A stretch of DNA of 50,940 nucleotides from a virus (lineage: Duplodnaviria > Caudoviricetes), in the IMG/VR virus record IMGVR_UViG_3300021432_000013, positions 1 to 50,940 of that record. The stretch is one strand, 5' to 3'. Shown here piece by piece: positions 34,305 through 49,540 of this stretch. Every line of letters starts with the position of its first letter. Position 1 is the stretch's first letter. Made by a program: the position numbers and the translations under genes. The notes below the pieces were generated by a model. The model was not told where the DNA came from. It ran no database searches and saw nothing but the letters and a program-made list of their open reading frames with translations.

Positions 34305-34853
34305 TTAAATTAAAAAGCCTCTTTCCTGCATAAAATCTACTGGGTGCTTTGCATGCTTCTGCAAATTACACTTGGGCGTTAATAACTGCATATTGTCATC
34401 CGTGTTACTGCCACCTAAAGCCAGTGGCATTCGGTGATCAAGGTGGTATTTATTGCCCAATTTAGCCCCGCAACAAGCGCACTTTCCTTTTTGAAGAGCA
34501 TAGAGCCTTTCCGGTAAATTACTTGAAAGCTTGCCTGGATATTTTCGCTTTAATGCACGGCGGTTATTTTCATACGTCCTATATTTATCTGTGTTCGTCA
34601 AATAATAATTAGCCTGATAGGCGGTTACAGACTCTTTGTTTTTAGTCTTCCATTCTGCTTGAGCTGCCGCAATTGCGGCCTTGTGTTTAGCTCGATACTT
34701 AGCTTTATATTTTGGATCACTGGGACTGTTGCACTGCAAGCATTGGCCGCTGCTTGTGCGTCTCGCGGCAATATGCCCGTGCTTGCATGGCTTTCCCGTG
34801 AAATAATGGCGCGCTCCAAGAGCCTTCGCCGCCTTGCGGAGAATAATTTCCAT
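34305..34853 (-). CDS. Free-standing HNH homing endonuclease
   Basis: Likely start MEIILRK; HYFTGKPCKHGH...CLQC; CACC...HLDHRMPLALGG....NMQLL...CN.QK. Confidence 0.88.
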   Translation of the reverse strand: MEIILRKAAKALGARHYFTGKPCKHGHIAARRTSSGQCLQCNSPSDPKYKAKYRAKHKAAIAAAQAEWKTKNKESVTAYQANYYLTNTDKYRTYENNRRALKRKYPGKLSSNLPERLYALQKGKCACCGAKLGNKYHLDHRMPLALGGSNTDDNMQLLTPKCNLQKHAKHPVDFMQERGFLI

Positions 34854-34948
34854 CTGATACCCCTTACGGTAATTTGAAGTGAGCCAGTAATCCAACTGTA
34901 AGGAGTTGGAAACGGTTGCAACCGCTGTCCTGGCCCGTTCATTATAAG

Positions 34949-37089: not shown

Positions 37090-37547
37090 TACGAGCCTAA
37101 CTTTCCGGAATCGTTATCTGTCAGGATCGTGCTTGCACGGCCACGGTTCGCAATCTGCTGAATGATGGCGCGCTGCTTGGCGGCGGCAACTGTGGCAGCA
37201 TCTGGCATTTCTGTCGGCGCTGGTACGCCTGGCGCTTTTGGCATGCTAGGGGTCATAAGTGTGCCGATGGCTTTACTCACGATCGCCGATCCAATGGCCG
37301 TCGCAGCCTGCCCAGCTAGACTAGTCCCCGCTACAGCCGTCCCGGCCGCTGCCGCAGTTCCAGTGCCAGCCGCCACACCAGCAGTCTCAGCAGCACCAGC
37401 GGCGCCCGCCCCTGCAATAGCATCAGCAGCACCTAATCCGGCCGCCGCAGCGCCGCCGGCTTCAGCTGCTCCAGCTCCTGCCGCTGCCTCACCCGCTCCT
37501 TTTGCGCCTTCTGCCGCGGCTGCCTCACCTACTCCAAAGTCTGCCAT
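37089..37547 (-). CDS. Ala/Gly-rich virion protein upstream of the portal
   Basis: Low-complexity N-terminus; RGRASTILT...KLG C-terminal motif typical of podovirus pre-portal genes. Confidence 0.7.
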   Translation of the reverse strand: MADFGVGEAAAAEGAKGAGEAAAGAGAAEAGGAAAAGLGAADAIAGAGAAGAAETAGVAAGTGTAAAAGTAVAGTSLAGQAATAIGSAIVSKAIGTLMTPSMPKAPGVPAPTEMPDAATVAAAKQRAIIQQIANRGRASTILTDNDSGKLGS

Positions 37548-37548
37548 A

Positions 37549-38034
37549 TCAAATATCCTTCACAGTGTTAAAACCAATCACGCGAAAGCCGCAATGCTGG
37601 TATAGCTTGGTCGTTGCTGCAATATTGATCTCTGTTGATTGCCCGACCATTACCTTGCGGGCGCCTTGTTCCTTGGCCCAGCGCTCGAAGTCGAGCAGTA
37701 ACATAACTGCCGCGGCTGATCCTCGTTTGTTCCCCATCACCCACCAGCCCATGTCATGCGCCAACAGCTCATCACAGAAGAATGCTCGCCGCACATTGCC
37801 AAAGAAACCGCCGAATACGACACCATCACGCACGGCCAGCCTGAAATAACGGTCAATCACCGTAGTGCCACAACAGGCCAATTGTCGGATCAGCTTATCT
37901 TCGTCAAACGGAAGATCGTGATAGATCGAATCACGGTGCATCTCACGGCCGATCACAATTGCTTGCTCGCGGTATTGATCGGCATAGGGAACAATCTGGA
38001 TTGATTGCCTAGCCTGTAAGCGTGCAATGTCCAT
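37549..38034 (-). CDS. GNAT-family acetyltransferase
   Basis: WWV...KRGS.AA..LL..FERWAKEQGA...KLYQHCGF. Confidence 0.8.
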   Translation of the reverse strand: MDIARLQARQSIQIVPYADQYREQAIVIGREMHRDSIYHDLPFDEDKLIRQLACCGTTVIDRYFRLAVRDGVVFGGFFGNVRRAFFCDELLAHDMGWWVMGNKRGSAAAVMLLLDFERWAKEQGARKVMVGQSTEINIAATTKLYQHCGFRVIGFNTVKDI

Positions 38035-39629
38035 TATTTCCTCGCAGTCAAAGGAGTGCGGCCGCCTAGCACTACATTGCCGCGACGCCCAGGCGCGAAT
38101 TGACGTTCGCGGTTATCCATCCATTCCATAGCGTCGGTGATCTCGCGCGGCCCTTCATGCCAGGACATAACGACAGCGTCGCCGGCATCTGTTGAGCGCC
38201 CGAGCCGTGCGCATACTTTATCTTTCGGTTCAGCCTTGATGCCGTTCGGTGTGATCTCGAACGTCGGCGCGGTCAGGTCAGCAAGTAGTTGCTGGTCAGG
38301 CGGGAGCGCAATCGGACTACCGCCTGGCTGCCCCGGATCAAGTGCCTCACGCATGCCCCAATAGGCAGCAGTACGCTTGTTCGTGAAATGCAGCTTGCCA
38401 TCACTGGAACGGCGATTGCTGGTTTCTGCGCCCTTATAGGCTTTGACTTCCACCGAATTGCCATGTAGATGTTCGTACATCGGGCCGCCATAGCCGCCGC
38501 CCATGTCGATCACGACCAAGGCATTGTTGCGGCGATACGATACGACGATGCCACCGCAGTGGGCACCAGCACGTTCCATCGGGATTTCCTTGCCGGGTAC
38601 GCGAATCAGTTCTGAGAACCAGCCATCGTAGCGACGCGCCAAGACCATCGGATCCTCGCCGCCGCCTGAGGCATCAACGCCGATACAGCACATCGGTATA
38701 TCGTCTGGCGGTTTCGGCTTCCAACGTTCTTGTGCCAGTTGTACCCATTTTGTCGGAATGATCTGATTCGGCAAATCCTTGAAACTCGTTTTGAAGCCGC
38801 CCATGAGCAGGGATCGGTAAGGCTCTGGCATGGCGTCCAGTTGGCGTTCGTAGTCGCTGGCAGCGTAGTATGGATTGTCGGATACCTTGGCCGGGATATA
38901 GGTGCGCGAAGTTGGCTTCATCATCTTGCCGTTGACTTCACGCGGCTCTGGGCCATCGACCCACTCATCCTTACCATCGGCGTCGGAGATCACCCAGCGC
39001 AATTCTCCTGGCTTGGCTGGGTTTGGGTAGCGCGGGTCTAGCCATGGGGCGAACATCTGATTGACCCATAGCCCTTCTGCGCTCAACGGTGGATTGGTGG
39101 CCAGCACTGTGCGAACCCGCTGGCCTGGGGTTTCTGTTCGGTTCCACCCCATGAGAAAACGTATCTGTGACTCGGCGAAATGGGTGGCTTCGTCAATCGC
39201 CAATAGGTCGCGGCCTTTACCCATCTGCCCCTGCTCATCGCCAACTCGGTGAGCGGCACCGAAGTTGATCATCTGAGTGTCAGATATCTTGAGCTTAGGC
39301 GGCGGCGAGCCATTGAAGCCTGCTTTGCTGCCGTGAACCTTAAGAGCATCCTCGACGATGCGATCGAGGTCGCTGTATTGGCGCCGCATGATTAGAGTGC
39401 GCTCATGCTCATTGAATGCGAGGCCGATCAATAGTTGCGACTTGCCACCGCCTGGCTCGCCGCCATACAGCAGCACATCAGCCTTGCTGAAGTAAGCATC
39501 CGTCTGCGGCCCAGGGTTCGGCACCCACTTGAGGGCCTTAGTCGCCTCCATCGTGTGCGAAGTCAGCTGTGCCTGATCCTTTGGCGACAGCCCAGCTACG
39601 CGCGCAATGATGGCGTCCAGGTCACTCAT
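38034..39629 (-). CDS. terL: Terminase large subunit
   Basis: PGPQ, Walker A YGGEPGGGKS, Walker B AIDEATHF, ATNPP, nuclease GVDASGGGED, RSTDAGDA. Confidence 0.92.
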   Translation of the reverse strand: MSDLDAIIARVAGLSPKDQAQLTSHTMEATKALKWVPNPGPQTDAYFSKADVLLYGGEPGGGKSQLLIGLAFNEHERTLIMRRQYSDLDRIVEDALKVHGSKAGFNGSPPPKLKISDTQMINFGAAHRVGDEQGQMGKGRDLLAIDEATHFAESQIRFLMGWNRTETPGQRVRTVLATNPPLSAEGLWVNQMFAPWLDPRYPNPAKPGELRWVISDADGKDEWVDGPEPREVNGKMMKPTSRTYIPAKVSDNPYYAASDYERQLDAMPEPYRSLLMGGFKTSFKDLPNQIIPTKWVQLAQERWKPKPPDDIPMCCIGVDASGGGEDPMVLARRYDGWFSELIRVPGKEIPMERAGAHCGGIVVSYRRNNALVVIDMGGGYGGPMYEHLHGNSVEVKAYKGAETSNRRSSDGKLHFTNKRTAAYWGMREALDPGQPGGSPIALPPDQQLLADLTAPTFEITPNGIKAEPKDKVCARLGRSTDAGDAVVMSWHEGPREITDAMEWMDNRERQFAPGRRGNVVLGGRTPLTARK

Positions 39630-40450
39630 TCAGTAGCAGCCTTCAGATATTGGCCAGACTGCATGCCATAAGGTGATGTCCATGTATCCATCGTATAGCG
39701 CTGGTTCTCGATCGCACCTTTCATGAACATCAGCCCTTGCTGGCCTTGCTGAACCTGCATATCGTGCTGCTGCTGGCGCTGCTGTAACTCGCGCAGGCGC
39801 GCAGTGGACTTGATCCACTGATGATCCCATTCGCACATGCCATATACAGGCATCGGGCGCAGGATGTCGGACTCAGGCGGAATGAAGACAGTAACGCCAC
39901 GGCGTAGCGCTTCCAGAATGAAGAACTGGCAGCCGGCGCGCTGGTATCCGTACTCTTCCGTGGCGGCCATATCGACCCCCCACATGCCAATGGTGTGTTG
40001 CTCTTTGTCTAGCTCGAGCGCAGTGCGTTGGTCATCGACCTGCTTGCATTGCAGGATAGCCAGAGCAAACATCATCGATAGCGAACTGGTCAGGAAGTAT
40101 GAACTGAACTCCGCCTCTACCTCTTTGATCGGGAATACAACATGCTGCGGCAGCTCATCAACCACGCCACCGGTGTAGACCGGCCCCTTGAACTGGCGCA
40201 TGAACTGCACATACTCAGGGCTGAACCATGGCTGACCAGGCTCCCAGCGGTGCAACTCGAACCATGCATCGCAGCGTTGCACCTGCCCATAAGCACCTGG
40301 CGAACACGCCCAGATGCGCCAATCTTCGTCAATATGCGGGGTAGGCGGCTGAATCTGCGTCTTGCCGCCCATGAATTGCTGATAACTCGCATCCTTGTAA
40401 GGGGCGAGGTGAATGGAACTTGGTGCTGAACCTATAAGCGCGATTTTCAA
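39626..40450 (-). CDS. Putative CMP-nonulosonate glycosyltransferase (GT42/GT29/Maf-like fold)
   Basis: KIALIGSAPS...WRIWACS...TSSLSMMFALAI...IGMWGVDM parallels the motif order of CstII-type enzymes (VIIAGNGPS...DVFRCN...TSGVYM..VAI...IYLSGIDF); TTG start after GAGGAG. Confidence 0.55.
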   Translation of the reverse strand: MKIALIGSAPSSIHLAPYKDASYQQFMGGKTQIQPPTPHIDEDWRIWACSPGAYGQVQRCDAWFELHRWEPGQPWFSPEYVQFMRQFKGPVYTGGVVDELPQHVVFPIKEVEAEFSSYFLTSSLSMMFALAILQCKQVDDQRTALELDKEQHTIGMWGVDMAATEEYGYQRAGCQFFILEALRRGVTVFIPPESDILRPMPVYGMCEWDHQWIKSTARLRELQQRQQQHDMQVQQGQQGLMFMKGAIENQRYTMDTWTSPYGMQSGQYLKAATE

Positions 40451-40472
40451 AACTGACCCCTCCTCGTAGCAA

Positions 40473-40952
40473 TCAGTAAGTGGAAAACGTTACGCCAGGG
40501 CTTGGCGGTGTCGCGCTCATCCAGATCGGGCCGGCTGCGGTGCTGGAACTCACACACGCAAGACTGACGCAGTGACCAACACCAGCGAACACTATCTGAT
40601 TGAATGACGAACCGGCCGATGTCACGATGTTGGCATTTGCCCCGAACTGCACGACGATGCCCAGGGTAGACGAGCTGAACTGCGTGATCTGCTTATACAC
40701 GCCAGGAACGGCTTGCAATAGCGTCATGATTGCGCTCGACGCTGCCGTACAGGTCAGTACTGAGAACCCATTCGGGACAAGTGATGTGGCTGCGGTGGTG
40801 GTGATGTTATCGATCGGCAGGCGCGTGTCTTGCTCGCCCACCTCGTAGCCATTGACGTCCATGCCGGCACGCCGACCCATCATCGATGTGACCATAGAAT
40901 TACGCAGCGTCTCGCGACTTACCTGCGCAAAGCTTGTGCTTCCTAGTGCCAT
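40473..40952 (-). CDS. Ser/Thr-rich putative virion protein
   Basis: AAGGAG RBS; beta-rich; about a quarter Ser+Thr. Confidence 0.65.
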   Translation of the reverse strand: MALGSTSFAQVSRETLRNSMVTSMMGRRAGMDVNGYEVGEQDTRLPIDNITTTAATSLVPNGFSVLTCTAASSAIMTLLQAVPGVYKQITQFSSSTLGIVVQFGANANIVTSAGSSFNQIVFAGVGHCVSLACVSSSTAAGPIWMSATPPSPGVTFSTY

Positions 40953-41027
40953 GATATTGCTCCTTCTTTATAAAGTTTCTCGCCGTAGCTGCTGCGAAGG
41001 ATGTCAGTGGCCGACTGACGGCGGTTT

Positions 41028-41633
41028 TTATCGAGGGCGCCAAGCACGGATAAAGCCGTTACAGGTCATTGTGCTGACGGTGAATACTGAGCTGGCAACC
41101 AGATACACCGTAGTGTTCGTATTCACGTTCACACGGTAGATAGGCGTCGAGAAAACTTGCGCTTGGCCTGCTGTAAAAGAGAGGGACCACGAGGTAGAAG
41201 CCCCTGTGTTGGCCGTTGCAAATGTGACCGATGTGGTACTTATACCTGTCTGCATGAGGGTCGGAACAGTCGATCCAGCTGGGATAAAGGTAGTTGTCCC
41301 CTGCACCAGCCAATCGCCGGCAGTCAGATTCCCGCTGGCGCAGTTACTGGTAGATGGGCTAGTCAAAGATGTGCCAGTGAGAGCATATGTCAACTCCTCG
41401 CCAAAGCTGCCAGCATTCGCATTATCGGCAAGCGTCGTCCCTACAATTCCGGCAGTTGATGATGGCGTTAGCGCGCCGGTCATGGTATCGCCAGCCTTAT
41501 TCACTGGCGTGTAGCCTAGAGCCTGTGTGACTGCCTGCGAATTAGGGATCTTTGGGCCTTCACTGAATGGGCGAGACTGCCCAAATGCGGCAACCGATGT
41601 GATCAGTAGTAATAATGAAATTAGCTTTCTCAT
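41028..41633 (-). CDS. Thr/Ser-rich protein with signal-peptide-like N-terminus and fiber-like motif
   Basis: MRKLISLLLLITSVAAFGQ; ALGYTPVNKAGDTMTGAL fiber repeat; C-terminal beta-sandwich-like region. Confidence 0.65.
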   Translation of the reverse strand: MRKLISLLLLITSVAAFGQSRPFSEGPKIPNSQAVTQALGYTPVNKAGDTMTGALTPSSTAGIVGTTLADNANAGSFGEELTYALTGTSLTSPSTSNCASGNLTAGDWLVQGTTTFIPAGSTVPTLMQTGISTTSVTFATANTGASTSWSLSFTAGQAQVFSTPIYRVNVNTNTTVYLVASSVFTVSTMTCNGFIRAWRPR

Positions 41634-41968
41634 CGCGCAAACCATGACATGGTGACGATGCCGCTGGACGGAGCAATCAGGGATAGACCGGTTGTAGTAA
41701 GTGTTGAGCCAATGTTACGCATCGTTGCGTTGAGTTCATTGCCACTACCATCAATCACATCGGACGACGGATAGACCGCCGCCGTGCTGCCGTATCTGAC
41801 GACGAAGTTGCAATCTGCTGAAAATGACACGAAGTTGGCGCCGGATGGTGTATCAAATGCGTGGCCACTAGATGCAGCAGCGAACACGCAATGGTTAATG
41901 TACTGTGGACGCGGCAGATTATCGGTCGGGTGCAACGTGCCAATAGGGAGAATTGTGCCGGCCATCAC
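41630..41968 (-). CDS. Small beta-rich hypothetical protein
   Basis: Coupled ORF in the late operon. Confidence 0.6.
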   Translation of the reverse strand: MMAGTILPIGTLHPTDNLPRPQYINHCVFAAASSGHAFDTPSGANFVSFSADCNFVVRYGSTAAVYPSSDVIDGSGNELNATMRNIGSTLTTTGLSLIAPSSGIVTMSWFAR

Positions 41969-42093
41969 TTACCGCCTTTCTGATAGGGAATCACAGGTGT
42001 TGTGGCTTTCTTCTTTGCCGGCGCCTTGCCCATCACGCTACTGAGTACCGGCGTCGAACCCTGATTCAATGGAACTTGCTTCTTCGTGGCCAT
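41965..42093 (-). CDS. Small basic protein (42 aa)
   Basis: MATKKQVPLNQGSTPVLSSVMGKAPAKKKATTPVIPYQKGGK; overlaps neighbours. Confidence 0.45.
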   Translation of the reverse strand: MATKKQVPLNQGSTPVLSSVMGKAPAKKKATTPVIPYQKGGK

Positions 42094-42287
42094 CATTTGC
42101 CTTTCATGTGCATGAGCGTCTGCGCAAGATTGGCGCGCTTGACGGTTTTGGGATTCTTGGACTTCTTCAACTTGCCTAGGACAGTCGATGTGATAGGCGC
42201 ATCACCTTTGATCATGCCGTCTGCCTTGGCCGTCTTGCGCAATGCACCAGGGTGCTTAATAGCACCAGCGATCCAGTTCTTCGTCAT
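42093..42287 (-). CDS. Small basic phage protein
   Basis: KNWIAGAIKHPGALRK...KRANLAQTL motif. Confidence 0.7.
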   Translation of the reverse strand: MTKNWIAGAIKHPGALRKTAKADGMIKGDAPITSTVLGKLKKSKNPKTVKRANLAQTLMHMKGK

Positions 42288-42682
42288 TTCTTGCCCCCGT
42301 AGTAGGACAGGGCTGAACCTGATACTTTCGGCGACTTCATCAGCGAACCAGCCTCCTTGTTTTCTTCTGCGGCTGAATCGTCAGGCTCTTGCCCTTCATC
42401 CATTACTTGCATCATGCACAGTTGGATACTGACGCACTTGGACTCGTCGGTGTCTTCACGATAAGCCTGCGACACGCTGGTCACGCGGCCAACAGCCATG
42501 ATGTGGAACTCATCGCCGACGCCAGGCAGATCAGTGATGCCAAGTTTCTCCAATTCGTCTTTCTCAAGCCGAATCTCCAGACCCCATGGATAGGCAGGCG
42601 GTTGCGGCGTAGCTAACTCAGTCGCCTCTTCCTTGCGCTCTTTAGGGGTGTACGACATGTCTACCATTTGCGCTGCCATCAT
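42284..42682 (-). CDS. Conserved phage protein (capsid-staple-like)
   Basis: MVDM...YPWGLEIRL....LEKLGI..LP.VG...V..VS...V.IQ. Confidence 0.6.
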   Translation of the reverse strand: MMAAQMVDMSYTPKERKEEATELATPQPPAYPWGLEIRLEKDELEKLGITDLPGVGDEFHIMAVGRVTSVSQAYREDTDESKCVSIQLCMMQVMDEGQEPDDSAAEENKEAGSLMKSPKVSGSALSYYGGKK

Positions 42683-43341
42683 GTTCCTTTGTGTATCGAT
42701 TGCGCCAGAAGGAAGGCTATCCGGCGAGCTAGGTCTTGTGGGTCTGCTACTACTGGATTACCGTTATCTGTGTCTTCATCCTTGCCATCGATGCCAAATG
42801 CTTCCCGCTCCAAGGCTACCAATGACTTCAGCGAGTCAGCCAAGCTCTTCATCGTGCCCGTGCGCGAGCTAAGCGAAATCATCTTTTGATACAACTCATT
42901 CAGCTTATCTACGCCCTTGTCATCAGGATTCAGCATCAATTCACCGAGTTGCTTGAGCAAATCCATGTTGTCCGTCTGATGCTCCAACTCGCTGAGCAGT
43001 GACATCACCAACTTACGGGATCGCTGAATATCCTTCCGTTGCTCCCGCCTAACCGTTGCCTGAAGCGTGGCATTGGCCTCAACCAGCTCTTTTTCCTGAA
43101 TCTTGGTTGCAGCTGTAACTTCGCGTGTAACCGCATCCTGTGTAACCAGAGCATCAGCCTTGGCGCGTATCTGTGCGGTCAAGTCCCGCCCTATCCCTGC
43201 TTTAGCCCAATGCTTGTCTATCGCGGCACGTGAAACGCCAAACGATTCAGACAGTTGTTGCTTACTCGTGATGCCTGCCCGCCATTCAGGCTCCATTGCA
43301 TCCCAGTCGATTACCTTCTTCTCTGCCATCTCAACGCCCAT
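42679..43341 (-). CDS. Terminase small subunit-like protein
   Basis: IDW...E.EWRAG..S...L...FGVS...I.K HTH; LEREAFGID; first late gene. Confidence 0.7.
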   Translation of the reverse strand: MGVEMAEKKVIDWDAMEPEWRAGITSKQQLSESFGVSRAAIDKHWAKAGIGRDLTAQIRAKADALVTQDAVTREVTAATKIQEKELVEANATLQATVRREQRKDIQRSRKLVMSLLSELEHQTDNMDLLKQLGELMLNPDDKGVDKLNELYQKMISLSSRTGTMKSLADSLKSLVALEREAFGIDGKDEDTDNGNPVVADPQDLARRIAFLLAQSIHKGT

Positions 43342-43376
43342 AAAAAAAGCCGCTCCTCGATTCCCGAGTGCGGCTA
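43342..43376 (-). terminator. Intrinsic terminator in the late leader
   Basis: AGCCGC...GCGGCT stem followed by a T run on the minus strand, just before the terS-like gene. Confidence 0.7.
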
Positions 43377-43439
43377 ATTCCCAACCAAGGGAGGAGACAA
43401 AGCATTGTATCTCTGTATCCTCGTTTTATTGCTGTGTAG

Positions 43440-43643
43440 CTATGTTGATATTTCAGCCAATTGATAGTGCTGCTTGTGCAGCTCCAATAGTTTCACGCCA
43501 GTCGAATAGCGAGGCTCATGCCCATACATCAGCGCTTGCACTGTACCGCGTGGAATTTCCAGTATCACCGATGCGCGGCGCGTAGAAATGCCTACCATGC
43601 GCAGGTCGAGCAGGATTTTTACCCAATTGGGACAGTCACTCAT
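43440..43643 (-). CDS. Small HTH regulator
   Basis: W..ILLDL...GIS....S..LEIPRGTV......EPRYSTG..LL.LH. Confidence 0.7.
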   Translation of the reverse strand: MSDCPNWVKILLDLRMVGISTRRASVILEIPRGTVQALMYGHEPRYSTGVKLLELHKQHYQLAEIST

Positions 43644-44644
43644 GGATATCGAAATAAATTACTAAGAAGGTCTTCCGTCAGCGGTGTACCAGCTTTCACA
43701 TTGCCCACAGCCATCCAGCCTATGACACTTTCATAATGGCTAGGGGCTATACCCAGAGCCGGCCGCGCCGTGTGCAGGTTATCAGCGGTCAGGATGTCGC
43801 CAGCTTTCATGTCCTTAGCGATGTAGAGCGAACGCCGCAATGCCGTTGACTCGGACGGCCCTGCCCCGTACTTGATCTCACCAATCGCTGCGACTGCTCG
43901 ACGGCATTCAACCACCATCTGCTTGAACTCGTGAGGCTCCATACTGAAACCGGCATCCGGGCCTCCATCTGCACGCGACAGCGTGAGGTGCTTCTCGATC
44001 ATGGTTGCGCCGAGAGCTGCTGCAGCGACGGCAACGCCGATGCCGGAAGAGTGGTCAGATAGGCCAGCATTACAGCTAAATACTCTTCCAATATCGCGCA
44101 TCGTCTTCAAATTAGCATCCGACGCATCAGCGGGATAGGCTGATGTACATTTCAACAGCGTCATATCACGTATCTGCGAAGTGGCATGCATGGCTGAATC
44201 TATTTCATCCCATGTAGCCATCCCAGTAGACATAATCATCGGCTTGCCCTTGCTGGCGACATGCCGGATCAGCGGCAGGTCGACCAGTTCAAAACTGGCA
44301 ATTTTGTACCTTGGACAGTTCAACGTTTCGAGGAAATCGACCGACTCACGGTCAAACGGGCTGCTGAAACACTCGATGCCACGCTCTGCACACCGATCAA
44401 ATATAGCTTGATGCCACCAATACGGGGTACGCGCTTCTGCATATAGATCAAACAGCTTGCGGCCGGCCCAAGGACCAGATGTCAGCGTGTAGTCGCGGTC
44501 TAAGCACATAGTATCCCGCTTCCATGTCTGGATTTTCACCGCATCGGCGCCAGCGTTCGCAGCTGCATCGACGATGGCTAATGCACGCTCTCGGCTGCCT
44601 AGATGGTTTGCACTCATCTCAGCGACGATAAAAGGTTGGTTCAT
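43640..44644 (-). CDS. pseI: Pseudaminic acid synthase (NeuB family)
   Basis: PFIVAEMSANH, GADAVKIQT, KIASFE, PMIMSTGMA, LKCTSAYP, GLSDH, IEKH.TLSR.DGGPD..FS; C-terminal SAF domain. Confidence 0.9.
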   Translation of the reverse strand: MNQPFIVAEMSANHLGSRERALAIVDAAANAGADAVKIQTWKRDTMCLDRDYTLTSGPWAGRKLFDLYAEARTPYWWHQAIFDRCAERGIECFSSPFDRESVDFLETLNCPRYKIASFELVDLPLIRHVASKGKPMIMSTGMATWDEIDSAMHATSQIRDMTLLKCTSAYPADASDANLKTMRDIGRVFSCNAGLSDHSSGIGVAVAAAALGATMIEKHLTLSRADGGPDAGFSMEPHEFKQMVVECRRAVAAIGEIKYGAGPSESTALRRSLYIAKDMKAGDILTADNLHTARPALGIAPSHYESVIGWMAVGNVKAGTPLTEDLLSNLFRYP

Positions 44645-44928
44645 AGATAGACTTCCTCATTCTTGCAATTTATTAATTTCGGGGTTCCAGTCTCTAAGCT
44701 TTCCACGATTTCGGTTCCCTCAAAAAAAACAGCACGATTACCCCAATTGCATGCCTCACAGTGTCGCGCATATGGGTCCACCATGAAATCCTTGAATGTC
44801 TCTGGGTGTAAAACTACGCGCCGCGCTATCTTCCCTTGAAATTGTTTGCGATGATCCTGTAGCGCTAGTCTGATGAAAGTCATAGCACCGCATGCAAATG
44901 TCTCATTCATGGGAATAGGTGTGCTGCA
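44641..44928 (-). CDS. Hypothetical protein (start uncertain)
   Basis: Fills the gap between the GNAT and pseI; stop overlaps the pseI ATG. Confidence 0.45.
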   Translation of the reverse strand, partial: CSTPIPMNETFACGAMTFIRLALQDHRKQFQGKIARRVVLHPETFKDFMVDPYARHCEACNWGNRAVFFEGTEIVESLETGTPKLINCKNEEVYL

Positions 44929-45301
44929 CGAGATTGAAGCCAAGTTCGGCAAACAGATCGACTGACTTGCGATTGCCGGGCGCCACATTGGCCAGGAACT
45001 TGCCAGGGTGGCGCTCCATGAGCAATTTTACCGCTGCGGCGCCATATCCATGCCCTTGATAACTCTTGAATATCCCAATGCCGATCTCGCGCTGCTTGCT
45101 CAGGTAGACAGCACCGAGACAGGCCTTCTCTTGGATTATCAAATACCAGTGCATATACGGTTCGCTTCCAACAAAAAGAGTGTGCTGCTCCCATGTAGGC
45201 ATAGCTTTATGGCTGATATTTGCTTCTATCGGCCGTTCTGCGAGTAAATGATAGAGCGCTGTCACGCCAAAATGGTGCTCGTAGACGCTGATCAGCTCCA
45301 T
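44903..45301 (-). CDS. GNAT N-acetyltransferase (PseH-like position)
   Basis: EIGIGI...YQGHGYG..A...ANV.PGN..S..LF..LGF. Confidence 0.8.
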   Translation of the reverse strand: MELISVYEHHFGVTALYHLLAERPIEANISHKAMPTWEQHTLFVGSEPYMHWYLIIQEKACLGAVYLSKQREIGIGIFKSYQGHGYGAAAVKLLMERHPGKFLANVAPGNRKSVDLFAELGFNLVQHTYSHE

Positions 45302-45465
45302 ATCGGCCCCATGTCATCTGCAAACCAGATCACCGCGACTAACACAGCGAGCATCAGGCATGGAAATACGTAATCCCAGAAAAACGACGACTTTTCTTCC
45401 TGAGCTTTAATCCATCCCTGCCCGCTGATCTTGTTGCCATATATTTCATGTTTTAAATCCGACAT
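45292..45465 (-). CDS. Small membrane protein (57 aa)
   Basis: MSDLKHEIYG...YVFPCLMLAVLVAVIWFADD...; AGGGGA RBS; overlaps both neighbours. Confidence 0.5.
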   Translation of the reverse strand: MSDLKHEIYGNKISGQGWIKAQEEKSSFFWDYVFPCLMLAVLVAVIWFADDMGPIWS

Positions 45466-46223
45466 GTGATTCCCCTTTGGTTGAGATATTCAGCGGCACC
45501 GCGAGGGGTGGCCTCTGTAAAAAGGAACAGGCTAGAGGCAGCGACCGCGCTAGCCCCAGCCGTGATCGCCTCATACATGTGTTCGTAGCTACCGCAGCCA
45601 CCAGAGGCAATCACAGGGATATCCACGGCATCCGATACCGCTCGGATCATGTCCAGGTCGTAGCCTTGCATCATGCCGTCGCGGTCTATGCTGGTCAGGA
45701 TGATCTCGCCAGCCCCATGCTCCGCAGTGCGCATACAAAGCTCAACAATGCTCAATATTTTTTCTGGCCTAATACCGTCTTCATATACATTACATGAGGT
45801 ATTCCCGCAATTCGTGAAATATTGAGCGCCAGAATAATCAATAGATCCAGTAATACATTGTGATCCATATTTTTGACTGACTTCTCGCAAAAATCGATGT
45901 GTTAAAAGATATGATCCAATCACTACCTTATCAGCTCCAGACAATAATAAATCTCTTACGACTTCTATGCTGCGTACACCACCGCCAACTGACACTGGGC
46001 AAAAATTTCCCTCCGTCATGCGTTCGACCATGGCGAAATCTGGGCATCTGCCCTCTGGCGTGGCACGAACATCGAGAATTAATAGCTCATCCACCCCACG
46101 CTTTGCATAAATTCTAGCAGCCTGCTCAGCAACGCCAACGCTACGCCATGATTTAAACTGCCTTCCTTTTACGAGTTGATGACCACGTATTAGTAATGTA
46201 GGAATGATCCGTTTAGCTAACAT
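45453..46223 (-). CDS. HisF-like cyclase (WbuZ type, amidotransferase ammonia channel)
   Basis: KRIIPTLL....LVKG, VDEL..LD, VGGGVRS, GADKV, GAGEIILTSIDRDG..GYD, PVIASGG. Confidence 0.88.
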   Translation of the reverse strand: MLAKRIIPTLLIRGHQLVKGRQFKSWRSVGVAEQAARIYAKRGVDELLILDVRATPEGRCPDFAMVERMTEGNFCPVSVGGGVRSIEVVRDLLLSGADKVVIGSYLLTHRFLREVSQKYGSQCITGSIDYSGAQYFTNCGNTSCNVYEDGIRPEKILSIVELCMRTAEHGAGEIILTSIDRDGMMQGYDLDMIRAVSDAVDIPVIASGGCGSYEHMYEAITAGASAVAASSLFLFTEATPRGAAEYLNQRGITCRI

Positions 46224-47262
46224 GAGCTTTAAACCTTTTTAAAGTTTTCATAAAATCAGGGCGATTAACGCCGATATAGTCAAGTACAGCATCGATCGGG
46301 ACATCCATATATTTTTCGGGGAATAAGCCGTCGTAATACTCAATCCACTTTAGCGCCTTTTCGCGTTCGACCAGGCCATCCCGCACATCGACGCTAATCT
46401 GTGCGCATCCGCGTCCGTATCCATACTTGAGAAACATTATGTGGTCATGGATACCGTGCAGAGCATTGTCCTGGTTCTCAGCCGCCCACCAGTTAGCAGG
46501 CGTCGGCAACAGCATCTTCATACCATGCTCTTGCGCCACTTTGGCGTTACGCCGGCTGTCCCACTCAAAATATTGGCCGAGAAAATGCGCTTCGGTTCCA
46601 ACATCCTCCATGCATTCATCTGAATACAACTTGTAATCCTGCATATCGCGCTCGGTGATGCCATCTATACCAACTACATCAGCCGGCCGCAACCCAAGTA
46701 AGCCACCGAACTCATTCACCCACCGTCGAGTCATTTCCTTGGCGGCATCGGTCCCTAACGGGCCGCCATAGGCTTGCTGCGGATTTTCACCGTAGAAAAT
46801 CAATGGAATATTCAAATCGACCGAAGCCCGAAATGGCGTCGAGAAGATGCTGACATGCTCAGGCCAACTGATATCACCTACCATTTCCAGCCCGATTTTG
46901 TTCAACTTAGCCCGTACCGTCTTGTTCGGCGAATATTCTATGGTCCGCGCATATCTTGCCAGGTTGTCGATGTTCTTGCGGCCTATCTCCGTCAGGTAGC
47001 AGGTCGTTGCGGTCACGATCGTGATGTCGGCGCCGAGTTCCAGAAGTTTCAGGACTTGCCAGGTCGAATCCTTACCTCCTGAGCTAGGTACGATACAGCG
47101 TCCGTCATGGCGGTCTAGCAGCGCTAGCAATTCAGCTTTCCGCGCACTCCAATCTATGAGCGGCTTCTTGCGCGCATTCACGCAGGCCGAGCACTCGCCG
47201 GATTCATCAAAATATAGGTCAGGCTTACTACGAGGATAACAACAAGTCCGGCAACGCTGCAT
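46213..47262 (-). CDS. N-acetyl sugar amidotransferase (PseA/WbuX family)
   Basis: C..C.....PD..FDE.G.C.AC; PP-loop SGGKDS; YGEN...YGG; HD...FLKYGYGR. Confidence 0.88.
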   Translation of the reverse strand: MQRCRTCCYPRSKPDLYFDESGECSACVNARKKPLIDWSARKAELLALLDRHDGRCIVPSSGGKDSTWQVLKLLELGADITIVTATTCYLTEIGRKNIDNLARYARTIEYSPNKTVRAKLNKIGLEMVGDISWPEHVSIFSTPFRASVDLNIPLIFYGENPQQAYGGPLGTDAAKEMTRRWVNEFGGLLGLRPADVVGIDGITERDMQDYKLYSDECMEDVGTEAHFLGQYFEWDSRRNAKVAQEHGMKMLLPTPANWWAAENQDNALHGIHDHIMFLKYGYGRGCAQISVDVRDGLVEREKALKWIEYYDGLFPEKYMDVPIDAVLDYIGVNRPDFMKTLKRFKAHVS

Positions 47263-47265
47263 AAT

Positions 47266-47841
47266 TCACCCCTGGTTCAATTCAATGTACCTGCATTCCG
47301 CAGATCGCCAGTCATCTTCGGTGTTGATGTCGCACACTCGGTTCGGATCGATCACGACCATTTGCGTATGTGCACCGACCAGTGGCAAATCTTCCTTAAA
47401 GGCGTCCACATCGCCCCAGTAGAACTGACCAGCATCGAACAAAGGCTCTGCGTTCACTGAGAATGCATAGCGTACGCCATTGCGCACCAGGGCGTCCCAG
47501 CCTCGCTTGAGGTCTTCCGGCAGCATCAGCGGGCAGGTAGCATAGATAACACAGGCGTGCCCGTAGCACTCAATTTCAGAGAGTACGTGGCGTGCGACAG
47601 CCTGAGTCCCGGTTTCATCGTCCGACAACTCCGTCGGCCGCATTTGCGCTTCGGCGCCATACTGGACGGCTACTGCGGCAGTCTTCTCGCAATCGGTCGA
47701 TACAATCACGCGGTCAAATAAGTGCGATCGCAGGGCAGTTTCGATGGAATAGGCCACGATTGGCTTACCATGAAACAGGCGCAGGTTTTTACCGGGTATG
47801 CGCTTGCTATTCTTTCGCGCTGGAATAATAGCGATCCGCAT
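47266..47841 (-). CDS. pseF: CMP-nonulosonic acid synthetase (cytidylyltransferase)
   Basis: IIPAR..SKRIPGKN....GKP, VSTD, DAGQFYWG, DINT.DDW. Confidence 0.88.
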   Translation of the reverse strand: MRIAIIPARKNSKRIPGKNLRLFHGKPIVAYSIETALRSHLFDRVIVSTDCEKTAAVAVQYGAEAQMRPTELSDDETGTQAVARHVLSEIECYGHACVIYATCPLMLPEDLKRGWDALVRNGVRYAFSVNAEPLFDAGQFYWGDVDAFKEDLPLVGAHTQMVVIDPNRVCDINTEDDWRSAECRYIELNQG

Positions 47842-48164
47842 CAGAAAACTTCCGATAGTACAGTGGAGACAAACTGCTCAGCCAGGTAGCCATCTGACCG
47901 TAATTTGTCTTCGCGCATGCTGGCCAGCATCAGGGCGATGCGCGGCACCAGTTTATCCCGGTGGCGCTGAATCAGCTCCGCCTTGAGTGTTGCCCCAGCT
48001 GGCTTGAGTCCATCACGCGCCTCGAATGCAGCATCGGTCATGGCGCAGGCAACATCAATGGCGTTCTGCGGATCGTAAAACACCTCGCGCATTGGCTCCT
48101 TGAACTGCTGTAGCACGCGGCCTTTTTCGATACTGATGATCATCTCTACGGCTTGGTCATTCAT
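47841..48164 (-). CDS. Hypothetical protein within the sugar operon
   Basis: Translationally coupled on both sides. Confidence 0.6.
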   Translation of the reverse strand: MNDQAVEMIISIEKGRVLQQFKEPMREVFYDPQNAIDVACAMTDAAFEARDGLKPAGATLKAELIQRHRDKLVPRIALMLASMREDKLRSDGYLAEQFVSTVLSEVF

Positions 48165-48775
48165 TTGAAAATTCCTATCTTATCTAGTTCCGGATATGGA
48201 TCATTTTTTAAATCTGCATTGTGTTTCGGCAGTGAATATAGCTTCAGTAAAAGTTGCGCCGCTGTCCCAGGGTTCATGTAGCAATGAAAACCTATCATAT
48301 CGAATACGCACTCACGCGGGTCAATGCCTTCCGTGCGTCCATCAAAGCGCGCGCGCCGCAGCCAAGCATCTGCCTCTTCATCATCATGCAAGAGAGCGCC
48401 ACCCTGTTCGATCCCGAGAATCTTAGACGCATGGAACGATACTGCCTGCATCTCACCAGGTATGAACATGTCCGAGGTGAAACGGCGCGCGCTATCCCAG
48501 ACTGGCAGCGGCTTGAGTTGATACGAGCCAGACCATTCTTCATCTCGGAAACTCACGCGGCCGCCGGCGTGAATGATGGACATCGGGACGCTAACATATG
48601 TTCTGGAAGGGATTTCAATCACATCCAGGCCTATTCCATCGCGCAGATGCCACGCTACGGCAAGCATGATGGCCGCCGTGCAGCTGTTTGTCGCCACGGC
48701 ATATTTTGCGCCGGTGTAATCGCAGAGTGCCGCCTCGAAGTCCTTCGTCACCGCATGCGGATTCTTAACGCTCAT
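48161..48775 (-). CDS. Minimal DegT/DnrJ/PseC-type PLP aminotransferase
   Basis: FE....Y.G.KYAVATNSCTAA..LA; WDSA; SFHASK....GG; only 204 aa. Confidence 0.85.
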   Translation of the reverse strand: MSVKNPHAVTKDFEAALCDYTGAKYAVATNSCTAAIMLAVAWHLRDGIGLDVIEIPSRTYVSVPMSIIHAGGRVSFRDEEWSGSYQLKPLPVWDSARRFTSDMFIPGEMQAVSFHASKILGIEQGGALLHDDEEADAWLRRARFDGRTEGIDPRECVFDMIGFHCYMNPGTAAQLLLKLYSLPKHNADLKNDPYPELDKIGIFK

Positions 48776-48906
48776 TTGTTCCTTCCTAGATACTCGTCAA
48801 CCGCGCGCCTGATAATTTCAGACACGGATAGGCCAGTCCTGGCCATGTGGGCCTTGAGCCGCTCAAGCATCTGAGCGGGAACCCTGATATTTAATCGTTT
48901 GAACAT
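48772..48906 (-). CDS. Ribbon-helix-helix regulator heading the sugar operon (44 aa)
   Basis: MFKRLNIRVPAQMLERLKAHMARTGLSVSEIIRRAVDEYLGRNK; stop overlaps the aminotransferase ATG. Confidence 0.8.
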   Translation of the reverse strand: MFKRLNIRVPAQMLERLKAHMARTGLSVSEIIRRAVDEYLGRNK

Positions 48907-48932
48907 GCGTACATTGTACATCCATTCGCACG

Positions 48933-48970
48933 AAAAAATAGCGCTCTTAAACTACCGGAGCGCTTATTTT
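48933..48970. terminator. Possible intrinsic terminator
   Basis: AGCGCTC...GAGCGCT stem flanked by A and T runs, after the 48970 stop. Confidence 0.5.
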
Positions 48971-49179
48971 TAGAAGCCGAGGATTTCTTTAGCCTTGGCG
49001 ATCAGAGCGGTAAAGCCGGCATGGAATTCTTCCGGTACTTTCAGGACTTCGGCTTCGATCTCTGCCAGAACGGACAGATGGGGTTGAGCTGCATCGATCT
49101 GCGCTTGGAGTTTGGTGACAATTTCCTGGTCAGCTGTAAGCGTTGCCTGGGCTGCGGTAAGTTGGTCTTGCAATGCCAT
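48970..49179 (-). CDS. Small coiled-coil protein
   Basis: GAGGA RBS; MALQDQLTAAQ... Confidence 0.6.
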   Translation of the reverse strand: MALQDQLTAAQATLTADQEIVTKLQAQIDAAQPHLSVLAEIEAEVLKVPEEFHAGFTALIAKAKEILGF

Positions 49180-49257
49180 GATGTATTCCTCGGTAGGTTT
49201 TAAAAATTGAGCTAGGTTAATGACACGAATTTTATGAAAGTTGAACATGTCAGCTTC

Positions 49258-49290
49258 AAAAAAGCCGCAACCCTTTCGAGGTTGCGGCAA
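49258..49290 (-). terminator. Rho-independent terminator
   Basis: GCCGCAACC-tcgaaag-GGTTGCGGC followed by T6. Confidence 0.8.
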
Positions 49291-49369
49291 AATGCAGAAG
49301 GGGACTACTGCATAGGGGAAAAATGTTCTGTAGACAGGATCACCTCCGATCAGCAGTTGAAATATGGTG

Positions 49370-49540
49370 CTAATGCTTATACTGGTTTTGTGCTGCTTCG
49401 ACCATGCTGATATGCTCAACAACTCCAAGCATGACCAATTTATCTAGTGCTATCTTCAAAAAATACAGAAATTCATCCGGAGCACCAAGTGCCGCGACGC
49501 CTCGCGCAATATCAGCAATAACGGTGTCGGAAGTTGCCAT
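49370..49540 (-). CDS. Small hypothetical protein (56 aa)
   Basis: MATSDTVIADIARG...; open frame in the operon direction. Confidence 0.4.
   Translation of the reverse strand: MATSDTVIADIARGVAALGAPDEFLYFLKIALDKLVMLGVVEHISMVEAAQNQYKH

Follow-up and report, generated by a model that had tools for sequence, protein, structure and literature searches.

The uncultured tailed phage of virus record IMGVR_UViG_3300021432_000013 (Duplodnaviria; Caudoviricetes; ~51 kb) carries, in the window analysed here (the whole stretch of 50,940 nt), a sugar operon and, on the same strand, a gene for a candidate transferase, X274. There is about an even chance that this module makes a CMP-activated, probably acetamidino-modified Pse-type sugar and puts it on the phage's own virion. 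Of the readings considered, O-glycosylation of a spike on the virion with the phage-made sugar is the most likely, and the gene content, shared with many relatives, suggests that these phages coat their own particles with a sialic-acid-like sugar. Glycosylation of the phage's own virion proteins had been put forward in the original prediction; it gains partial support from the fold of X274, from co-occurrence with sugar genes and from a conserved Ser/Thr-rich neighbour of virion type, from which we infer the attachment itself. Candidate roles for such a coat are shielding, reduced sticking to debris, host mimicry and adsorption, and no description of such a phage system was found in literature searches.

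A nonulosonate operon upstream of terS

The tightly packed operon that had been predicted was recovered gene for gene on the minus strand (43640-48921), with neighbouring genes overlapping at start and stop by 1-13 bases at most junctions. It is followed on the same strand by terS, encoding the small terminase subunit (42679-43341, minus strand; phrog_1206, E 4e-55). The operon stands at the head of the structural gene block and not in the early region, and the whole unit has the same orientation as the 35-kb structural block; the module would be expressed late. An assembly chimera, that is, a host fragment joined to the phage, is ruled out because the same gene set repeats in related virus records, many of them with direct terminal repeats, and because GC content shows no break.

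The first gene encodes a ribbon-helix-helix (RHH) protein of 49 aa (48772-48921, minus strand; PF01402 RHH_1, E 3.1e-12), with an alternative Met start at 48906, and overlaps by 4 bases with the start of a DegT/PseC-like gene (48161-48775, minus strand). The product of the latter had been predicted to be a DegT aminotransferase, and family membership holds (PF01041, E 1.6e-19), but the protein is a conserved short form of 204 aa that covers only part of the 360-position profile, and that reaches 45.5 bits against TIGR03588 PseC, for which the cut-off is 423.5. It aligns with perosamine synthetase 3bn1 over residues 42-102 and 177-253, and retains the PLP-lysine motif. Compared with the canonical enzymes (PseC) it lacks the C-terminal domain as well as ~75 residues in the interior, so that it may not be an aminotransferase. 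Relatives keep the reduced size (about 200-235 aa), and the same form is found in 85-kb phages at 59-65% identity. The next ORF, of 107 aa (47841-48164, minus strand), is conserved behind the short DegT gene in some relatives, with tblastn matches in 5/80 loci, and has no Pfam or NCBIfam match and no meaningful PDB sequence match.

The core of the operon is made up of genes with recognisable sugar functions. A PseF-like CMP-nonulosonate synthetase (cytidylyltransferase) of 191 aa (47266-47841, minus strand; PF02348, E 4.2e-27) scores 203.2 bits against TIGR03584 PseF, 2.5 bits short of the cut-off of 205.7. It is followed by a WbuX-type N-acetyl sugar amidotransferase of 349 aa (46213-47262, minus strand) that matches TIGR03573 over its full length (1-341) with 216.1 bits, exceeding the 203.2-bit cut-off, and by a WbuZ/HisF-like amidotransferase partner of 256 aa (45453-46223, minus strand; PF00977, E 1.3e-55), for which the best model is TIGR03572 WbuZ (238.8 bits, under the cut-off of 299.7). 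The small membrane protein of the original prediction corresponds to a 57-aa ORF (45292-45465, minus strand), where a hydrophobic C-terminal stretch can be seen in the translation; it is not conserved, with tblastn matches in 0/80 loci. A GNAT N-acetyltransferase of 132 aa (44903-45301, minus strand; PF00583, E 8.9e-8), with no match among NCBIfam models, is a candidate for the PseH-type step. The ORF at 44641-44988 (minus strand) has no Pfam or NCBIfam family match and no PDB match; its true start is probably near 44910, giving 89 aa, and the homologue in locus L004 spans residues 31-115. The last gene encodes PseI, a pseudaminic acid synthase of 334 aa (43640-44644, minus strand) with PF03102 and SAF domains, which exceeds the TIGR03586 cut-off (418.5 bits versus 340.25) and falls under that of the NeuB equivalog (290.5 versus 399.65).

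The predicted nonulosonate pathway was borne out for PseI and WbuX, both above their cut-offs, but is incomplete, as PseB, PseG and a HisH-type glutaminase (GATase) were not found in this genome, and PseB-like genes occur in some relatives only. According to the family models, PseI would join a 2,4-diamino-2,4,6-trideoxyhexose to PEP by condensation, the PseI product would be activated by the PseF-like enzyme with CTP, and WbuX together with WbuZ would convert an N-acetyl group to an acetamidino group. The positions of PseH and PseC would be taken by the GNAT and the short DegT-like protein, respectively, whereas PseB, PseG and the ammonia supply would have to come from the host or from ORFs of unknown function.

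X274 and its Ser/Thr-rich neighbours

The X274 gene (39626-40450, minus strand) encodes 274 aa from a TTG start and, as predicted, overlaps by 4 bases with the start (39629) of terL, the gene for the large terminase subunit (38034-39629, minus strand; phrog_979, E 2.3e-22); terL comes after X274 in 79/80 loci. The protein has no Pfam or PHROG match and no significant PDB sequence match, and no Maf/DUF115 or GT42 Pfam model matches any of 35 + 93 members of its family, which comprises 2642 clusters at E<=1e-3. The AlphaFold (AF2) model (pLDDT 85) has a Maf/MptE/GT42 fold, in keeping with the Maf- and GT42-like character originally predicted for it. In a VIA search of 48,161 chains, where rows within 1 Z count as tied, first place goes to Maf, a flagellin glycosyltransferase (5mu5; Z 10.5, 153 residues at rmsd 3.0 A); MptE (HPPK; 8sd5) comes next at Z 9.8, then the GT42 sialyltransferase CstI (2p56) at Z 9.2, with GT29 sialyltransferases at Z 6.2-6.6. 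In Foldseek, an independent search, the leading matches are CstII (1ro7, E 1.4e-4) and a sialyltransferase from P. multocida, with E values from 1.4e-4 to 8e-4. The same P. multocida CMP-Neu5Ac sialyltransferase is the best of 177,635 PDB sequences for a broad family profile of X274, in an alignment that covers the motif SS..M.A.AI...G.D and whose E value of 2 is not significant alone. Polar residues invariant in the family are H67, D160, E166, Q170, S194 and Y203, and the translation begins without a signal-like or hydrophobic stretch. X274 is the candidate CMP-nonulosonate:protein transferase.

As had been predicted, the morphogenesis region contains Ser/Thr-rich ORFs: the three between terS and X274 have 22%, 29% and 25% Ser+Thr, against an average of 13.4% for 2354 open frames on the plus strand of related loci. 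The 22% protein, of 112 aa (41630-41968, minus strand), is not related to the unk159 family described below, and in relatives lies upstream of a variable fibre-like gene. The 29% protein, of 205 aa (41028-41645, minus strand), has a signal-peptide-like N-terminus and is fibre-like, its C-terminal part matching the tail fibre family phrog_11393 (E 2.3e-13). The 25% protein, unk159 (159 aa; 40473-40952, minus strand), is the candidate acceptor. It combines a conserved N-terminal motif with a beta-sandwich as in phage spikes and fibres; its AF2 model (pLDDT 78) matches CBA120 TSP4, a baseplate protein of KP1, the C-terminus of the Solidus tailspike and the capsid spike of Pa223 in VIA (Z 10.2-7.7, the next match being at Z 5.5), and the Pa223 capsid spike is also the best Foldseek match (E 2.3e-4).

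This arrangement is conserved. Wherever the flank upstream of X274 exceeds about 350 nt (76/76 loci), such an ORF directly precedes the gene, mostly with 24-31% Ser/Thr. In 68 of the 76 it is matched by the unk159 family HMM, as a protein of ~155 aa with 25-30% Ser/Thr. The same block holds a gene for an epsilon15-gp10-like capsid decoration protein of 132 aa (42284-42682, minus strand; PF21628, 48.2 bits, cut-off 27) that matches PDB 3j40 chain N 'gp10' (E 1.7e-8). In distant lineages, X274 and its Ser/Thr-rich neighbour come after the major capsid gene; the L169 MCP matches PDB 9ny2 (E 4.5e-56).

Co-occurrence of X274 with sugar genes

The predicted association of X274 with pseI/pseF-type genes was found in related and in more distant phages, with most of the co-occurrence coming from related genomes and not independent. 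In the 30 loci where the flank upstream of X274 is 7 kb or longer, WbuZ is present in 29, WbuX and GNAT in 27 each, PseI in 24, PseF in 19 and the short DegT in 17. Of the virus records with X274, 17/18 with a length of 40 kb or more have a NeuB-family gene, and 19/21 with a completeness of 90% or more have a NeuB/PseI gene; elsewhere PseI-like genes are rare (3/50,697 GenBank phage records). Three of the 19 are complete phages of 75-87 kb whose terminase/portal context is unrelated; they encode an X274 homologue, NeuB and CTP_transf_3, and the two 85-kb phages among them also encode the short DegT, WbuX, WbuZ and GNAT. In all three the sugar genes are ~20-55 kb away from X274.

The near-complete genomes G002 and G027 have X274 and the Ser/Thr-rich neighbour and no NeuB or cytidylyltransferase gene, and the record of a cultured Microcystis phage with an X274 homologue was not matched in the PseI search. 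Since these phages keep X274 with its conserved residues intact, the enzyme is independent of a donor pathway encoded by the phage.

Possible targets of the sugar

If the sugar is destined for the virion, a cytoplasmic X274 of Maf/GT42 fold would use the CMP-sugar to O-glycosylate Ser/Thr residues of the spike-like unk159, with the remaining fibre-like, Ser/Thr-rich proteins of the terS-terL interval as possible further targets, and the modified proteins would join the particle to give it an acidic, sialic-acid-like surface. Points that weaken a virion target are the incomplete pathway, the short DegT, the occurrence of X274 without nonulosonate genes, and a fold common to pyrophosphokinases. 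Besides Maf/GT42 enzymes, the fold of X274 is common to MptE, thiamine pyrophosphokinases (Z 8.1-6.0) and SteA (Z 8.9), with scores near those of Maf and CstI. X274 might be a nucleotide-dependent enzyme like MptE or thiamine pyrophosphokinase, or it might serve the assembly of the small spike protein without being a catalyst, its co-occurrence with the operon reflecting shared genome ancestry, a reading that we consider unlikely. The lack of significant Pfam or PDB sequence matches, the genomes with X274 and no nonulosonate genes, and a GenBank homologue labelled as a methyltransferase would fit it. However, co-occurrence persists in lineages with an unlinked operon and unrelated terminase and portal genes, the best PDB sequence match is a sialyltransferase aligned over the SS..M.A.AI...G.D motif, and the invariant residues favour an enzyme over a scaffold.

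It is similarly improbable that the operon boosts or alters the CMP-pseudaminic acid pool of the host, with the sugar ending on flagellin, pili, S-layer, LPS or capsule through host transferases, or through X274 acting on a host protein, possibly blocking superinfection or keeping progeny from sticking to debris. Maf enzymes act on flagellin, and this is the activity named in the title of entry 5mu5, the top structural match of X274. Moreover, without PseB, PseG and a glutaminase the pathway would work only in a host already making such sugars and having its own acceptors; for sugar enzymes of phages, Pyle et al. (bioRxiv 10.1101/2023.12.21.572611) float the idea of receptor depletion. Against host remodelling, X274 is tied to a phage spike-like protein in the head/packaging module, in distant lineages as well, the operon heads the structural block and not an early region, and family searches revealed no membrane-anchored or Und-P-type transferase in the region. 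Far less probable still is that the packaged DNA carries the nonulosonate on a hydroxymethylated base, attached there by X274, an alternative raised in the original prediction that found no support. The site beside the terminase genes, where X274 homologues of this clade and that of the Microcystis phage also lie, would fit, as would the C5 cytosine methylase encoded at 5600-6346; Pyle et al. also describe phage DNA glycosyltransferases that can put an ulosonic acid (Kdo-like mass) on 5hmC, some of them encoded near terminase genes. Yet the glycosyltransferases described there have GT-A or GT-B folds and not that of Maf/GT42, a search of this genome returned no TET/JBP dioxygenase and no thymidylate-synthase-like hydroxymethylase, no DNA polymerase is among the annotated ORFs, and distant lineages have X274 behind the capsid gene and Ser/Thr-rich proteins, not behind the terminase.

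The putative transferase X274

The 274-aa protein X274, a candidate CMP-nonulosonate:protein transferase, is encoded on the minus strand at 39626-40450, and the stop codon of its gene overlaps the terL start, as had been claimed from the sequence. X274 matches no Pfam or PHROG model, and PF01973 (Maf/DUF115) matches neither the protein nor those of its relatives that were tested. Relevant matches to Maf or GT42 models in Pfam were likewise absent among 35 close family members, 93 diverse members and 10 long forms. PDB profile searches returned nothing significant; the best PDB sequence match of a profile built from diverse members (A2) is the P. multocida CMP-Neu5Ac sialyltransferase 9c08, at only E 2, aligned over the SS..M.A.AI...G.D segment. 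An Atlas cluster in which 17% of members carry PF01973 scores 0.79, and serves as a lead only.

The AlphaFold model of X274 (pLDDT 85.1, pTM 0.73) places CstII and the P. multocida sialyltransferase first in Foldseek (probability 1.0 for CstII, E 1.4e-4 to 8e-4, TM 0.34-0.44). In an exhaustive VIA structure search of 48,161 chains, the top match is the Maf flagellin glycosyltransferase 5mu5 (Z 10.5, rmsd 3.0, 153 aligned), followed by the MptE HPPK 8sd5 (Z 9.8), CstI 2p56 (Z 9.2) and SteA (8.9), with thiamine pyrophosphokinases (Z 8.1-6.0) and GT29 sialyltransferases (Z 6.2-6.6) at lower ranks. Because Foldseek, VIA and the top profile match agree, the assignment of the predicted structure to a Maf/MptE/GT42 fold is considered sound. 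The part of the original prediction that concerned a fold shared with CstII, GT29 and Maf was upheld, no match to a sequence model was found, and the choice of a glycosyltransferase over a pyrophosphokinase rests on context.

The closest structural counterpart, the Magnetospirillum Maf protein, is matched via the central domain of 5mu5 (273-499). Maf proteins, such as those of Magnetospirillum and Campylobacter, resemble X274, as the latter is predicted, in being cytoplasmic and genetically tied to Pse/Leg biosynthesis genes. The acceptors of Maf are Ser/Thr residues of a surface-structure protein, flagellin, and Maf4 is reportedly a putative legionaminyl transferase (PMC9298399). In contrast to Maf (632 aa), X274 is without the flanking domains, in place of which the predicted model has a long C-terminal helix, and it is phage-encoded and paired with a phage spike-like protein, whereas Maf is paired with flagellin. 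The GT42 enzymes (CstI and CstII of Campylobacter jejuni, and the P. multocida alpha-2,3-sialyltransferase 9c08) have the same fold as the X274 model and the same order of N-terminal G-S-A-P-S and S-S...G-x-D motifs, the latter aligning to 9c08, but they are only 11-17% identical to it in sequence, and no sequence match reaches significance. The GT42 donor is a CMP-nonulosonate, as it would be for X274 in its candidate role, the evidence for X274 being genomic co-occurrence. The GT42 acceptor is lipooligosaccharide, whereas the proposed acceptor of X274 is a protein.

Within the X274 family, H67, G158, E166 and Y203 are invariant, and D160, Q170 and S194 nearly so. The family is large, with 1583 matches at 90% clustering (unnamed or 'hypothetical' throughout among the 120 matches listed) and 2642 clusters at E<=1e-3 in a library at 50% identity. 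A tblastn search with X274 of 50,697 phage records found one distant match among cultured relatives, at 27% identity in Microcystis phage Mvi-Yong1342-1 (GenBank PP496355.1, 34781-35584), where the homologue follows a 115-aa Ala/Ser-rich ORF and precedes terS and terL. It is annotated as a 'type 11 methyltransferase', a name that finds no support in the fold result for the family.

Nonulosonate genes in the window and its relatives

The sugar operon (43640-48921, minus strand) has the arrangement originally described, a chain of minus-strand ORFs with mostly overlapping stops and starts, and terS next downstream. The genes encode, in order, an RHH protein (PF01402), a 204-aa DegT-like protein, a 107-aa ORF, a PseF-like protein, WbuX, a WbuZ/HisF-like protein, a 57-aa ORF, a GNAT, an unknown ORF, and PseI. 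The PseI protein, also found in a whole-genome search, scores 418.5 bits against TIGR03586, above the cut-off of 340.25, whereas the NeuB equivalog stays below its own cut-off on the same protein; because of this difference, the predicted product is best read as a Pse-type sugar. The WbuX PP-loop amidotransferase passes the cut-off of TIGR03573 (216.1 versus 203.2 bits). For the 191-aa PseF-like protein, TIGR03584 is the best model by far (203.2 bits, cut-off 205.7), and TIGR03572 is the best of 34 models for the WbuZ/HisF-like protein (238.8 bits, cut-off 299.7). By analogy with the established role of the family, the presence of both WbuX and WbuZ makes an acetamidino group on the predicted product likely. 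The GNAT matches the PF00583 domain but no NCBIfam model, and is a candidate for the PseH step. Neither the 107-aa ORF nor the unknown ORF before PseI (probably 89 aa) has a meaningful match among PDB sequences.

The DegT aminotransferase was confirmed only in part, as the gene is DegT-like, but its short product is not a full-length PseC-type enzyme. It scores 45.5 bits against a PseC cut-off of 423.5, and does not extend over a full-length PLP aminotransferase. Its alignment to perosamine synthetase covers two stretches, residues 42-102 and 177-253, and it retains the lysine motif. Forms of about 200-235 aa are kept in relatives, and another lineage of phages has one that is 59-65% identical; the short protein is therefore a form maintained by selection rather than a decayed gene. 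The genome, 97% complete, shows no match to TIGR03589 for PseB, to TIGR03590 for the UDP-sugar hydrolase PseG, or to PF00117 for a WbuY/HisH-like glutamine amidotransferase. PseB-like PF02719 genes are present in five relatives examined (L040, L047, L015, L020 and L024), either beside the DegT-like gene or elsewhere within the sugar gene cluster. Compared with the PseBCHGIF and PseA/WbuXYZ pathways of C. jejuni and H. pylori (for WbuXYZ, E. coli O145 and P. aeruginosa O12), the operon shares PseI, PseF-like, WbuX, WbuZ-like, GNAT and DegT-like genes, but PseB, PseG and HisH/WbuY are missing, the DegT protein is short (about 200 aa), and the carriers are lytic-looking phages, only 4 small MAG contigs matching among 185,579 species genomes searched. 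As judged by gene content, the pathway in the window genome is streamlined and incomplete. A chimeric assembly, in which the operon would be a host fragment, is ruled out by its conservation across many related records.

The association of X274 with nonulosonate genes was followed through IMG/VR. A first motif search found 183 relatives among 189 matched stretches, and terL follows X274 in 79 of the 80 loci retrieved. Thirty loci have at least 7 kb of upstream sequence, and carry WbuZ (29), WbuX (27), GNAT (27), PseI (24), PseF (19) and the short DegT (17). NeuB is present in 17 of 18 X274 records of at least 40 kb, and in all 15 of those that are at least 90% complete; record G002 (96% complete) is without it. 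Conversely, a PseI-seeded search gave 23 loci, with X274 downstream in 14 of the 22 examined. The others are explained as contig ends, as a second arrangement within the same records, as a giant-virus MAG or as more distant PseI genes.

With alignment A4 as a more distant seed, 372 stretches matched and 348 of them were relatives, many in other lineages with no pse genes within 10 kb. Among 14 whole records from this set, NeuB is present in three, all complete genomes (86.6, 84.7 and 75.5 kb). The same three carry CTP_transf_3, which is absent from G002 and from G027, a complete 41-kb genome with an X274 homologue and no NeuB. In the two 85-kb phages, short DegT, PseI-like, WbuX, GNAT, WbuZ and PseF-like genes occur in a different order, and tens of kb from X274. 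Summed over all sets, NeuB is found in 19 of 21 X274 genomes that are at least 90% complete; the co-occurrence with pseI/pseF-type genes extends to distant lineages where the genes are unlinked. Clade members are non-independent cases, whereas the unlinked cases in other lineages are independent. PseI-like genes are present in 3 of 50,697 GenBank phage records.

Two relatives carry further genes in the sugar cluster or beside it. In one (L024:5973-7076), WbuZ and PseI are separated by the insertion of an ORF whose product has an HNH_3 endonuclease domain. In the other, an 82.9-kb record (L034:3186-3998), a calcineurin-like phosphoesterase directly follows PseI and might take over the nucleotide-sugar hydrolase step that is missing. 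A giant-virus-labelled MAG record of 102 kb (L099, L097) has a DegT-like gene as well as a PseI-like gene at 46% identity, with no X274 homologue within 10 kb.

Ser/Thr-rich neighbours and the proposed role of X274

Between terS and X274 lie an epsilon15-gp10-like capsid decoration gene and three ORFs with 22%, 29% and 25% Ser plus Thr, in agreement with the Ser/Thr-rich ORFs predicted for this morphogenesis region. The decoration protein (42284-42682) matches PF21628 at 48.2 bits (cut-off 27) and PDB 3j40_N (E 1.7e-8), a chain of the epsilon15 capsid. Directly upstream of X274 is unk159, a 159-aa Ser/Thr-rich protein (40473-40952, minus strand) and candidate acceptor. By single-sequence search, 57 of 76 loci have a homologue of unk159 in this position, and by a family HMM 68 of 76 do; a member of the family is found somewhere in 76 of 80 loci, the remaining four having at most about 350 nt of upstream flank. 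Family members are mostly 24-31% Ser/Thr, against a background of 13.4%.

The unk159 model is all beta (pLDDT 78), and its VIA matches point to a phage-appendage beta-sandwich: CBA120 TSP4 residues 80-180 (Z 10.2), the Klebsiella phage KP1 baseplate protein (10.1), the Solidus tailspike C-terminus (10.1), chain 6o38_A (8.6) and the Pa223 capsid spike (7.7), with the next row at 5.5. Foldseek ranks the Pa223 capsid spike first (E 2.3e-4), and matches in BFVD and the Atlas are confined to viral proteins that are uncharacterised and to leads of the fibre, cement or depolymerase type. In distant lineages, X274 and its neighbour come immediately after the major capsid gene. In the case of L169, the major capsid protein (PDB 9ny2, E 4.5e-56) is followed by a 177-aa unk159-family member (32% Ser/Thr), the X274 homologue and a further five small ORFs rich in Ser/Thr. 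The 85-kb phages have terL first, then a large portal-like ORF, X274, and an ORF with 25-26% Ser/Thr.

Of the other two Ser/Thr-rich ORFs in this interval, the 112-aa one at 41630-41968 is unrelated to the unk159 family. The second encodes a 205-aa fibre-like protein (41028-41645, minus strand) whose N-terminus resembles a signal peptide, an unusual feature in a virion fibre; relatives have variable ORFs of 490-800 aa in its place.

In the most economical model, X274 would be a cytoplasmic protein O-glycosyltransferase that loads a CMP-activated, partly phage-made Pse-type sugar onto the small spike-like protein unk159 before assembly, and perhaps onto other Ser/Thr-rich fibre proteins. Extended to the whole family, the proposal is tentative, and we would sooner doubt than assert it: a very large unannotated Maf-like family, which numbers 2642 clusters at 50% identity and which one motif finds in at least 348 IMG/VR contigs, would be at home in the head modules of tailed phages from the environment and would O-glycosylate small Ser/Thr-rich capsid spikes with nonulosonic acids, the sugar coming from a streamlined phage-borne pseudaminic/acetamidino pathway or from the host, and sialic-acid-like coats would be widespread on phage particles.

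Three observations count against a glycosylation role. The predicted fold of X274 is tied with that of pyrophosphokinases; the X274 pair, with conserved residues intact, occurs in G002, G027 and the Microcystis phage, genomes without nonulosonate genes; and the pathway in the window genome is incomplete. A role for X274 other than glycosyl transfer is judged unlikely, with the NeuB co-occurrence in independent lineages counting against it. We regard as equally improbable that the sugar system remodels the host surface; the neighbour conserved beside X274 is a phage-encoded, spike-like protein. Modification of packaged DNA, the other alternative raised originally, is largely rejected and has very little probability. 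It has a precedent in Pyle et al. (bioRxiv 10.1101/2023.12.21.572611), where phage sugar-activating enzymes are paired with a DNA transferase of GT-A or GT-B type, one product being a Kdo-like ulosonic acid placed on 5hmC by a GT-B enzyme. However, the clusters described there accompany 5mYOX or ThyS genes, both absent from the window genome, and no hydroxymethylating enzyme was found in that genome.

Returning to O-glycosylation of virion proteins, the two halves of the model are each familiar. Phage virion glycosylation is known from mycobacteriophages, and Maf-type nonulosonate transfer to flagellin is also known. In the mycobacteriophage systems, reportedly described by Freeman and colleagues (2023, Cell Host Microbe), a tailed phage is said to encode GT-A/GT-B-type glycosyltransferases that use host nucleotide sugars to glycosylate capsid and tail proteins; to our knowledge, these systems have no nonulosonate pathway and no Maf/GT42-type enzyme. 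The likeness to the system proposed here is that of a phage's own transferase acting on virion proteins. New here would be the joining of the two in a phage: in full-text literature searches, no paper was found to link a pseudaminic, legionaminic or nonulosonic pathway encoded by a phage with a Maf- or GT42-like enzyme, nor any characterised tailed-phage system of such design, as had been supposed. In the main text of a review on giant-virus glycans (PMC9614988), the terms nonulosonic, pseudaminic, legionaminic and sialic acid occur 0 times, and in passages of SugarBase (10.64898/2026.04.20.719630) phages are mentioned only as flagellotropic predators.

If the model is true, a tailed phage would build a sialic-acid-like nonulosonic sugar and place it on its own particle, and flagellin-type protein O-glycosylation would meet virion assembly, two fields so far apart. 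Such a role would also be the first function for a protein family with thousands of members and for its Ser/Thr-rich partner, with a bearing on how phage particles deal with hosts, grazers, mucus and immune lectins. The compact operon, with its short DegT and no PseG, could hold new enzymology for CMP-pseudaminic acids, and a cultured Microcystis phage has the enzyme-partner pair.

The phage genome and its other genes

The window is estimated to be 97% complete (IMG/VR record, 50,940 bases), and its gene order marks it as a podovirus of T7-like architecture, as the original prediction had it for a genome of ~51 kb. The portal gene is followed by those for the major head protein, tail tube A and B, the internal virion proteins, a 2118-aa protein and a tail fibre. 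DnaB, ERF, NinB and a C5 cytosine methylase are among the products of the early genes, and no RNA or DNA polymerase was seen among the annotated ORFs. The region 39000-49500 has no megablast match in GenBank phages. The portal is at most 28.5% identical to that of any cultured phage (pelagiphage HTVC010P-type and others), and thus no cultured member of the clade is known. GC content is smooth across the sugar region, no tRNAs were found in the window genome, and no host was inferred from tRNAs or MAG matches.

In a scan for promoters and terminators, counts were no better than in shuffled sequence, with the exception of one strong hairpin at 49288-49264 on the minus strand. It is terminator-like, with a 10-bp stem (7 GC) and a T-run after it, and lies within a predicted 152-aa ORF (48970-49428) that probably starts later than predicted. 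A transcription unit may end at this hairpin, just upstream of the sugar operon.

The 2118-aa virion-module protein (18210-24566, minus strand) has a sole match, to phrog_9880 (function unknown, 1015 bits). Between terL and the portal gene, an acetyltransferase-like gene (37549-38034, minus strand; phrog_1249) is present in only one of the 80 related loci (L003), and a 152-aa Ala/Gly-rich protein with no family match (37089-37547, minus strand) directly precedes the portal gene. The C5 cytosine DNA methylase (5600-6346, minus strand, 248 aa) matches only positions 4-161 of a 324-position Pfam profile, and a second long ORF (5608-6342) overlaps its gene in another frame. Two HNH/endonuclease VII-like genes lie inside the head module on the minus strand (31657-32256 and 34305-34895), where one follows the major head gene and the other the portal gene, and a third HNH gene is located in the early region (2929-3429). 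All three look like homing endonucleases.
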